Source: Escherichia phage WPEC3
DNA: 64,000 bases
Direction: 5' to 3' (one strand)
Sequence record: PV611058
In this document: positions 26,034 to 26,984 of the stretch, in pieces
Position numbering within the stretch: the stretch's first letter is position 1
Layout of the letters: each line of letters begins with the position of its first letter
Notes under the pieces: generated by a model
Told to the model about the DNA's origin: nothing
Databases searched by the model: none
The model's input: only the letters and a program-made list of their open reading frames with translations
Made by a program: the position numbers and the translations under genes

Positions 26034-26338
26034 TTTATTACCTCTATATCTACATCTGTACCATAGTAGGAAACGTAACCATTATCTGAATTACATTGAA
26101 TTGATAACTCTGATTCATAGTATGTTACTTTGATCACTGTTAGAACTTTTTCATCAATTTTTCCCGTTAAATAATCCATTTCACGAACACGAACTTTGGT
26201 TCCTTTTGGGAGTTCTTGTGCAATTTTATTAACAAGTTCAAAAGCAGCTTCTTCAAGTGTGTGCAACAATTGCAATCTATCTTGGATATTCATATTATTT
26301 CCACCAAGTTGTATCACGACCACCAGACAAAGATTCAT
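26030..26338 (-). CDS. hypothetical protein
   Basis: 102-aa ORF; ATGA overlap with rnlA. Confidence 0.5.
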   Translation of the reverse strand: MNLCLVVVIQLGGNNMNIQDRLQLLHTLEEAAFELVNKIAQELPKGTKVRVREMDYLTGKIDEKVLTVIKVTYYESELSIQCNSDNGYVSYYGTDVDIEVIK

Positions 26339-26984
26339 TGTACTGATGCCTGAAATTAGTATTTGGATTATTTGTCATTGTACTAATAAAATCAAATTTA
26401 ACATTCTCTTGAATGTAATTAATAACATTATCTTTAAATTTAATAGTACTGAAATCTAAATCCAAATGTTCATACAATACAGGATGGCAAAACTCATGTG
26501 TACGCAATGATGGCATGGTATCCTTAATGTATTGCACCGTGTTAATCATTGCATTGTACTCAGGCATAGCACGCATCATCATTAGCTGAAAGTGTTCTTC
26601 CTCTGACATTGACTCATCCAAATCAATAACGACTTCATCATTTTTAGAGTCATATACTTTAATGGAACTCTTTGTTGGATCAAGCATAGCCCACTCTGGA
26701 TACAGGCATGTTTTCCAAAAAGGATTATTGCACTGAAACATACTAATGAGATTTTGATTTTTATCAAAAATAGCAAATCCAAGATCCGAACTTGGCTGTA
26801 CTTCACATACACAAATATCATAAGGCGAGTCTTCAGTACTGAATGAACCAACCACATTTGATATATGTGAATATGGAGTTTCTCTTGATTTTAATTCAAA
26901 GGCTCTCTCCATACGATTAACCTGTGGTTGTAATGTAATTACACCCCTCAGTACATATAAAATTCTATCTAAATCTTTAATCAA
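26295..26984 (-). CDS. hypothetical protein carrying the FQ-core domain outside the array
   Basis: Contains SEEEHFQLMMM followed by ...VLYEHLDLDF, the same motif pair as the 38-64 kb array members. Confidence 0.55.
   Translation of the reverse strand: MIKDLDRILYVLRGVITLQPQVNRMERAFELKSRETPYSHISNVVGSFSTEDSPYDICVCEVQPSSDLGFAIFDKNQNLISMFQCNNPFWKTCLYPEWAMLDPTKSSIKVYDSKNDEVVIDLDESMSEEEHFQLMMMRAMPEYNAMINTVQYIKDTMPSLRTHEFCHPVLYEHLDLDFSTIKFKDNVINYIQENVKFDFISTMTNNPNTNFRHQYNESLSGGRDTTWWK

Follow-up and report, generated by a model that had tools for sequence, protein, structure and literature searches.

A gene outside the tandem array and close to rnlA in Escherichia phage WPEC3 probably encodes a divergent member of the FQ family

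We analyzed 64,000 nucleotides of Escherichia phage WPEC3 (record PV611058; this whole stretch is referred to below as the window) and found that the gene at positions 26295–26984 probably encodes a divergent, full-length paralog of the FQ multigene family, which forms a long tandem array further along the window. The window has a GC content of 34%, carries its genes nearly all on the minus strand, and matches Asteriusvirus-type jumbo coliphages. By megablast, positions 25500–28500 shared 99.5% identity with Escherichia phages Ecwhy_1 and fEgEco12, and 89–99% with 121Q, PBECO4, G17, phAPEC6, and others. The first-pass annotation had reported an FQ core in the 229-aa product of this gene, about 11 kb from the array, and a second one in a 286-aa protein encoded at 34497–35357. 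The motif strings and coordinates of both genes were correct, and the distance was borne out by the array start at 38066. The array and its associated genes are as follows.

38066–63945, minus strand: main tandem array of the FQ family, with at least 43 motif genes and several decayed copies, extending beyond the window end
40896–41534, 44706–45269, 46422–46964, 50434–51036, 43129–43557, and 38914–39387, minus strand: in-array genes without the FQ dipeptide (e.g., ALMQLSTSEP, DAMFTNDITM)
36224–36517, minus strand: possible degenerate family member just before the array, 97 aa, NDENMFMLAINDF; 15.9 bits, E 1.8e-4 on the broad HMM described below

The array products, encoded by at least 43 small genes in succession, have in common an acidic-x-x-FQ-x-S motif. 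When 42 members were aligned, the mean identity was 12% and the only invariant residues were F and Q, both of which are present in all 43 array members. Among 141 database representatives, the signature was h-[TS]-E-E-x-[YLHF]-F-Q-x-S-[TL]-[VIL]-[YHLF]-[DNSE], with E at −4 in 114, E at −3 in 110, and Ser two places after the Q in 125 of the 141 (F and Q in 141 of 142); the residue right after the Q was highly variable. The array member at 45868–46425 (FQHMLIHK) has Met at the usual Ser position, as does the 229-aa protein. FQ-family proteins are small (about 100–215 residues), their N-terminal and middle regions are extremely variable in the array, and short forms (103–121 aa, with FQ at residues 60–70) occur there alongside long ones. 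Two of the FQ-less in-array genes still scored 10–13 bits on the broad HMM, indicating that they are decayed copies within the array, and the product of 36224–36517 is possibly a degenerate member that has lost the Q. The array continues in Ecwhy_1 at 280020–281866, where four members lie just past the window end. None of the six proteins compared with Pfam (the 229-aa and 286-aa proteins and four array members) gave a match, and in PHROGs v4 the array family is split among many families of unknown function (e.g., phrog_9317, 12674, 28549, 15629, 13866, and 19795).

The 229-aa gene lies among the following features.

26295–26984, minus strand: 229-aa gene, assigned by HMM, BLASTP, and the reverse test described below to a divergent FQ-x-M branch, and the only out-of-array FQ member in the window
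26562–26609, minus strand: core motif M126-S-E-E-E-H-F-Q-L-M-M-M-R-A-M-P141, with a predicted helix at 128–137
26992–26998, minus strand: Shine-Dalgarno sequence AAGAGGA, 7 nt upstream of the TTG at 26984 and inside the end of the upstream gene
24891–26033, minus strand: rnlA, T4 Rnl1-type RNA ligase (Pfam PF09511, RNA_lig_T4_1, and PF20819, T4_Rnl1_C)
23136–24068, minus strand: Pnk kinase/phosphatase, forming with rnlA a T4-like RNA repair pair with three small ORFs in between

The open reading frame starts with TTG, reads ...DESMSEEEHFQLMMMRAMPEY...PVLYEHLDLDFSTIKFKD..., and stops one base ahead of the ATG of the next small gene; its product carries MSEEEHFQLMMM. It had been described as next to rnlA, which holds as a statement of nearness and not of direct adjacency, because the small ORF 26030–26338 lies between the two. 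The neighbors on the other side (26989–27288 and 27333–27614) do not belong to the FQ family, and the gene is solitary here. Terminator-like GC hairpins followed by T runs were observed at 27307–27326 and 31011–31035 (minus strand), the former being located two genes upstream of the 229-aa gene, so that 26989–27288, the 229-aa gene, 26030–26338, and rnlA may constitute one transcription unit. The N-side part of the motif, M-S-E-E-E-H-F-Q at residues 126–133, fits the family consensus h-[ST]-E-E-x-[YLHF]-F-Q, whereas the C-side part, L-M-M-M-R-A, departs from the family x-S-[TL]-[VIL]-[YHLF]-[DNSE]. In PHROGs, the protein constitutes its own family of unknown function (PHROG 32531), without a cross-match to the array families at E≤0.01.

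To compare the 229-aa protein with the array, two HMMs were built from the 43 members, one from whole proteins and the other from the region between 20 residues before FQ and the C-terminus, and were searched against all 212 window ORFs of at least 60 aa. The 229-aa protein was the top non-seed match with both, at 15.6 bits (E 2.5e-4) and 14.2 bits (E 6e-4), in an alignment centered on lsEEelFQ, and the next non-seed ORF reached about 8 bits. Only one of 20,000 shuffles of the protein attained its score with either HMM (p about 5e-5), and the other 73 non-array ORFs, shuffled 14,600 times in total, never reached 14 bits. In a leave-one-out analysis, true array members scored 2.2–94.6 bits and 7 of the 43 fell below 16; thus, the 15.6 bits of the 229-aa protein is within the family range of the same HMM. 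A broad HMM made from the 43 window members and 142 database representatives gave the protein 19.0 bits (E 2e-5) and was positive for 7 of 7 orthologs tested (11.1–19.5 bits). When orthologs were scored alone on the window-only array HMM, EJP02_094 obtained 19.5 and 21.6 bits and ENKO_101 and Munch_103 12–16 bits, comparable with the 11–30 bits of the canonical members of the same phages; the score of Hallingskeid CDS0608 on this HMM was not significant.

Pairwise alignments extended beyond the motif. By BLASTP, the 229-aa protein was 29% identical to the product of 41495–42046 over 86 collinear residues (71–151 versus 71–147) with an E value of 7e-7, ENKO_101 aligned with the same array member over 121 residues (E 2.5e-4), and EJP02_094 aligned with Hallingskeid CDS0611 over 127 residues (E 0.008). 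These alignments of the 229-aa family with canonical members were collinear and reached 55–90 residues upstream of the motif. EJP02_094, ENKO_101, and Munch_103 each had 42058–42639 as the next-best window match (E 5e-5 to 1.4e-4). The closest array relatives are as follows.

41495–42046, minus strand: closest array relative of the 229-aa protein, 183 aa, YSEEQHFQLSTIHS; BLASTP E 7e-7
42058–42639, minus strand: second closest array relative, 193 aa, FGEEQYFQLSTIHELPPYD; top match of the 229-family HMM, E 4.5e-5

For the reverse test, an HMM of 22 ortholog clusters was searched against 982 ORFs from the window and the rest of Ecwhy_1, of which 68 belong to the FQ family. As a result, FQ-family proteins accounted for 9 of the 10 top matches (hypergeometric p 2e-10) and 16 of the top 20 (p 2e-16), and the sole background match in the top 10 was a decayed in-array gene. 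In profile–profile comparison with the array by hhalign, the probability was 22% (P 1e-3) with five ortholog sequences, 74% (P 2.9e-5, 59 columns) with seven, and 73% (P 3.1e-5) with 22, with 34–59 aligned columns across the deeper runs; it was 48% against a broader alignment. These probabilities are suggestive but fall short of the 90–95% usually wanted. The hhalign signal was lost when the 12-residue motif was masked. However, in the leave-one-out control of this masking, 31 of the 43 true array members also fell below 8 bits, which indicates that the masking test does not discriminate and that the FQ family as a whole is held together by the motif at the sequence level.

To characterize the 229-aa lineage, we collected its orthologs. 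The first search gave four clusters (93, 91, 85, and 47% identity), in which E-x-EHFQ-x-MM-x-RAMP was invariant, and tblastn against phage genomes added distant orthologs at 24–31% identity in Erwinia phage Hallingskeid, Escherichia phage EJP2, Klebsiella phage fENko-Kae01, and Salmonella phages Munch, 7t3, SE_PL, and PHA46. By profile search, the total came to 22 clusters of 203–230 aa, among which D74, W98, E128, E130, H131, F132, Q133, P141, and Y171 were invariant down to about 20% identity. At residue 135, equivalent to the usual Ser, most clusters have Met and a few have Leu or Thr; M136 was nearly invariant. The FQ motif was the most constrained part of the 229-aa family, and likewise of the array family.

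Four distant genomes were inspected (Hallingskeid, EJP2, fENko-Kae01, and Munch). In each, the ortholog was located directly upstream of rnlA and was flanked by canonical FQ members, and the rnlA/pnk order was retained, pnk following after a few genes. The canonical genes on the upstream side of the ortholog include CDS0609 (SEETNFQGSTIV) and CDS0611 (AEDAMFQFSTLY) in Hallingskeid, EJP02_093 (TEEMHFQASTVL) and EJP02_091 (DECALFQASTVC) in EJP2, and ENKO_098 (TEEMHFQHSLMCELPE), ENKO_099, and ENKO_100 in fENko-Kae01; the canonical members flanking the orthologs also include TEEMHFQHSLMC. A Pro nine residues after the F is common to ENKO_098 (EEMHFQHSLMCELPELE) and its neighbor ENKO_101 (EDEHFQLMMLHTLPEFE). 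The corresponding canonical neighbors of the 229-aa gene are absent in the window.

Structure prediction was also examined. The AlphaFold model of the array member 54081–54572 had a pLDDT of 77 and a pTM of 0.76, and its confident parts were the N-terminal helix (pLDDT 90), the short [ST]-E-E-x-Φ-F-Q helix, and the following long helix (92–97 for the FQ segment and the next helix), between which the model places a poorly conserved β-sheet. The AF2 model of the 229-aa protein, from a five-sequence alignment, was poor (pLDDT 47); with this qualification, the two models agreed in their succession of elements (N-terminal helix, six strands, FQ helix, long helix, strand, and helix), the short EExxFQ helix being predicted at 109–115 in 54081–54572 and at 128–137 in the 229-aa model, which has additional C-terminal helices. 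By Foldseek against BFVD, the array model retrieved FQ paralogs only (121Q, RaK2, SP27, fHe-Yen9-04, and Serratia BF), with no target of the 229-aa type, and the poor 229-aa model retrieved only its own orthologs. No Pfam, PDB, or literature match was found for the FQ family.

The LDLDF string of the 229-aa protein had been read in the first-pass annotation as the counterpart of a downstream F-x-LDL element of the array members, and this did not hold, since the array HMM places the family FYLxL and helix on TIKFK-DNVINYIQE. That placement agrees with the 229-aa model, in which a strand is predicted at about residue 183 and a helix at 185–194; the hhalign alignments of the 229-aa profile end at about residue 157. 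The resemblance of LYEHLDLDF to LYEHLNEDF in 49200–49790 (7 of 9 residues) was rejected as a family element because, counted from FQ, it is shifted by 18 residues and is not family-wide, and the LYEHL..DF match is near chance expectation (estimated p about 0.04–0.1).

The second protein proposed to carry the FQ domain fared differently.

34497–35357, minus strand: 286-aa protein, ...VPDELMFQLML..., with the FQ block conserved in its own orthologs

It has orthologs in 121Q (gp415, 84% identity), RaK2 (ORF445, 35%), and SE_PL (gp335, 28%), whose best-conserved block is L-[IV]-[DE]-[IV]-P-D-[ED]-x-[MV]-F-Q-[LF]-M-x-x-G-x-x-D-Y-D. On the FQ HMMs, both window-array and broad, the 286-aa protein scored −22 to +0.5 bits and its three orthologs were also negative; hhalign aligned it with the array over 8 columns (P 0.27) and with the 229-aa family over 19 (P 0.079). 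The no-hit outcome named in advance as the refutation of the domain claim was thus obtained for the 286-aa protein and not for the 229-aa protein. We therefore rejected the former as an FQ-family member; it has only the string PD[ED]x[MV]FQ[LF]M in common with the family, conceivably through convergence or an extremely remote relationship. A 219-aa protein at 31041–31700 (minus strand), which ends in a poly-acidic tail (DLDDDDDDE), contains SEEKFQEY with a negative HMM score and hence serves as a chance look-alike control. These two cases indicate that short strings over-call family membership.

The 198-aa product of 33283–33879 (minus strand) ends with NTEEEFNLMMRYG, recalling SEEEHFQLMMMRA, but found no support in its HMM scores (3.2 and −0.8 bits) and matched nothing in Pfam. 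Apart from the FQ family, the window has another, unrelated and smaller array of tandem paralogs at 29591–30994 (minus strand), possibly also including 22104–22463; its five genes encode 86–103 aa with N-termini like MNLNDIQFTYKFLY and mutual phmmer E values of 2.5e-8 to 7e-3. A Pfam scan of one of its members, 29838–30149, gave no match.

Given that such look-alikes arise within the window, it has to be considered whether the 229-aa protein is unrelated to the array and its acidic-x-x-FQ helix is coincidental or independently evolved. The profile signal lies almost entirely within 12 residues, the hhalign probability did not rise beyond about 73%, the post-motif Ser is replaced, and neither PHROGs nor Foldseek gave a cross-match, all of which speak for such a resemblance. 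Nevertheless, we consider this explanation unlikely, since the collinear BLASTP alignments of 86–127 residues extend well past the motif on its upstream side, four independent orthologs match the same array members, and the reverse whole-genome ranking is far from random (p 2e-10). Furthermore, the motif lies at nearly the same distance from the N-terminus (FQ at residue 132 in the 229-aa protein and at 128–130 in its closest relatives from the array), the predicted secondary-structure elements follow one order, and the orthologs sit among canonical FQ genes in other phages.

If relatedness is accepted, the extent of the homologous part can still be read in different ways. The first-pass annotation had favored a reusable module fused to different N-terminal regions. 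On this view, a self-contained C-terminal module of about 90 residues is shuffled onto unrelated N-termini, with the 229-aa and 286-aa proteins as fusions, and the extreme variability of the array N-terminal and middle regions (mean identity 12%), the short forms beside long forms, the C-terminal extension peculiar to the 229-aa protein, and the PD[ED]x[MV]FQ[LF]M segment as the best-conserved part of the 286-aa family are consistent with it. However, the alignments to canonical members include the region upstream of the motif, the N-terminal helix of the array model is predicted with a confidence close to that of the FQ segment and the next helix, and the 286-aa protein fails in both HMM and hhalign analyses. 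The whole 229-aa protein appears to be homologous, and the fusion of a module is therefore not favored and, in our estimation, very unlikely. It is also conceivable that the motif works as a short linear signal by which one common partner docks onto or processes related and unrelated proteins alike, including 34497–35357, considering that 141 of 142 representatives and 43 of 43 array members retain both F and Q despite the 12% mean identity, that some copies resemble a TEV-type site (EEMYFQGS), and that the FQ block is the best-conserved part of the otherwise unalignable 286-aa family. Such a signal is highly improbable because the motif is a helix in the most confident part of the AF2 model (pLDDT 97), which is atypical of an exposed linear motif, the residue after the Q is highly variable, and the annotation tables consulted for Ecwhy_1 list a capsid maturation protease and a metallopeptidase with no 3C/NIa-type protease.

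Taken together, the collinear upstream alignment, the FQ position, and the element order make the 229-aa protein look like a divergent paralog over its whole length. According to this preferred reading, it keeps the N-side S-E-E-E-H-F-Q exactly, has exchanged the family x-S-[TL]-[VIL] for L-M-M-M, and is longer at the C-terminus by about 35 residues. The gene is a single-copy ortholog held directly, or almost directly, upstream of rnlA-pnk in several genus-level RaK2-like lineages, in which it belongs to a mini-array with canonical FQxS genes; in the present phage, those neighbors are missing and the gene is solitary. With respect to the family as a whole, the conserved helices may provide a scaffold for a variable sheet that binds targets, in which case the family would be a diversified set of non-virion proteins for host interaction or counter-defense. 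The invariant F-Q would then be buried as a structural key or else form a contact site common to the members.

The finding of an FQ core outside the array, probable for the 229-aa protein, was extended by scanning Ecwhy_1 outside the window with the array HMMs, with the window offset taken from the megablast match. The scan yielded 25 further FQ members at E≤0.01, distributed as follows.

Ecwhy_1, 280.0–281.9 kb: 4 dispersed FQ members by array HMM
Ecwhy_1, 11.6–33.4 kb: 16 dispersed FQ members by array HMM
Ecwhy_1, 345–352 kb: 2 dispersed FQ members by array HMM
Ecwhy_1, 189.9, 203.1, and 328.3 kb: single FQ genes by array HMM

The same scan found no FQ member at 33–190 kb, the structural and replication region. 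The family amounts to about 70 genes including the window copies, roughly 12% of the genes (Ecwhy_1 has 590 annotated features), and the solitary canonical members elsewhere in the genome indicate that location in a tandem cluster is typical but not obligatory. Among 1.84 billion representative proteins, no more than 143 clusters matched the array profile at E≤1e-3, indicating that the family is rare in sequence space, and all relatives identifiable by phage name came from RaK2-like jumbo phages. The database protein P0060 (773 aa) has 13 stretches matching the array profile and is internally repetitive (...VTFQHPLIL...); it is almost certainly an artifact and no FQ-family member. Another large paralog block was observed in Ecwhy_1 (MH791411.1, 314881–328251; locus L008, 35881–49251, plus strand), where about ten genes for 370–400-aa proteins, mostly annotated as putative DNA condensation protein, run in tandem; a solitary FQ gene (328284–328934) lies at the end of this block on the opposite strand.

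No account of the FQ family turned up in the literature searched on Asteriusvirus, 121Q, PBECO4, phAPEC6, RaK2, and CBB paralogs. Comparable expansions include the zinc ribbons of Bacillus phage G, a lineage-specific expansion of roughly 35 copies (Iyer et al, 2021, PMC7824862), and the paralog sets of phage CBB with its presumed early host-takeover region (PMC5259590). The FQ family resembles them in comprising many small uncharacterized paralogs clustered among small genes in a jumbo phage. Within the family, the 229-aa protein is probably a new divergent member of the kind seen in the array, which it resembles in the N-side motif [ST]-E-E-x-Φ-F-Q, in the location of this motif some 130 residues into the protein, in the Pro about nine residues after the F (as in 42058–42639 and the rnlA-proximal canonical members), in the predicted element order, and in the significant HMM and BLASTP similarity. 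In contrast, it differs in Met-Met-Met instead of Ser-[TL]-[VIL] after FQ-x and in the C-terminal extension, and its gene is solitary and single-copy across genera with a separate PHROG, unlike the fast-diverging tandem copies.

The motif also calls to mind a known cleavage site. The recognition site of the TEV/NIa protease is E-x-x-Y-x-Q|(S/G), and some array copies read EEMYFQGS or EEGYFQGS, with a Q after aromatic and acidic residues in all. Unlike that site, the 229-aa protein has E128 at P6, H131 at P3, Q133 at P1, and L134 at P1′, the FQ family has its Ser at P2′ after a variable residue, and the motif is predicted to be helical with high confidence. The likeness is thus one of strings only, and we judged a protease-site reading unlikely in view of the predicted helix and the variable P1′ residue. 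A broader proposal would be that the [ST]EExΦFQ helix is a shared site linking the roughly 70 paralogs to one partner, such as a phage or host machine or a processing enzyme, and that the 229-aa branch beside rnlA-pnk is the ancestral, functionally fixed member, which would tie the family to RNA repair and counter-defense against anticodon nucleases, with the 286-aa protein (PDExMFQLM) as a convergent user; this we regard as quite unlikely.

The array is merely the densest portion of a genome-wide family without a Pfam model or a solved or recognizable fold. As a slow-evolving, single-copy, and syntenic branch, the 229-aa gene provides an orthology anchor for dating the FQ expansion. Its product is a tractable first target for structural and interaction work, and, because the usual Ser is replaced by Met, it also lends itself to comparisons that address what the invariant F-Q does.
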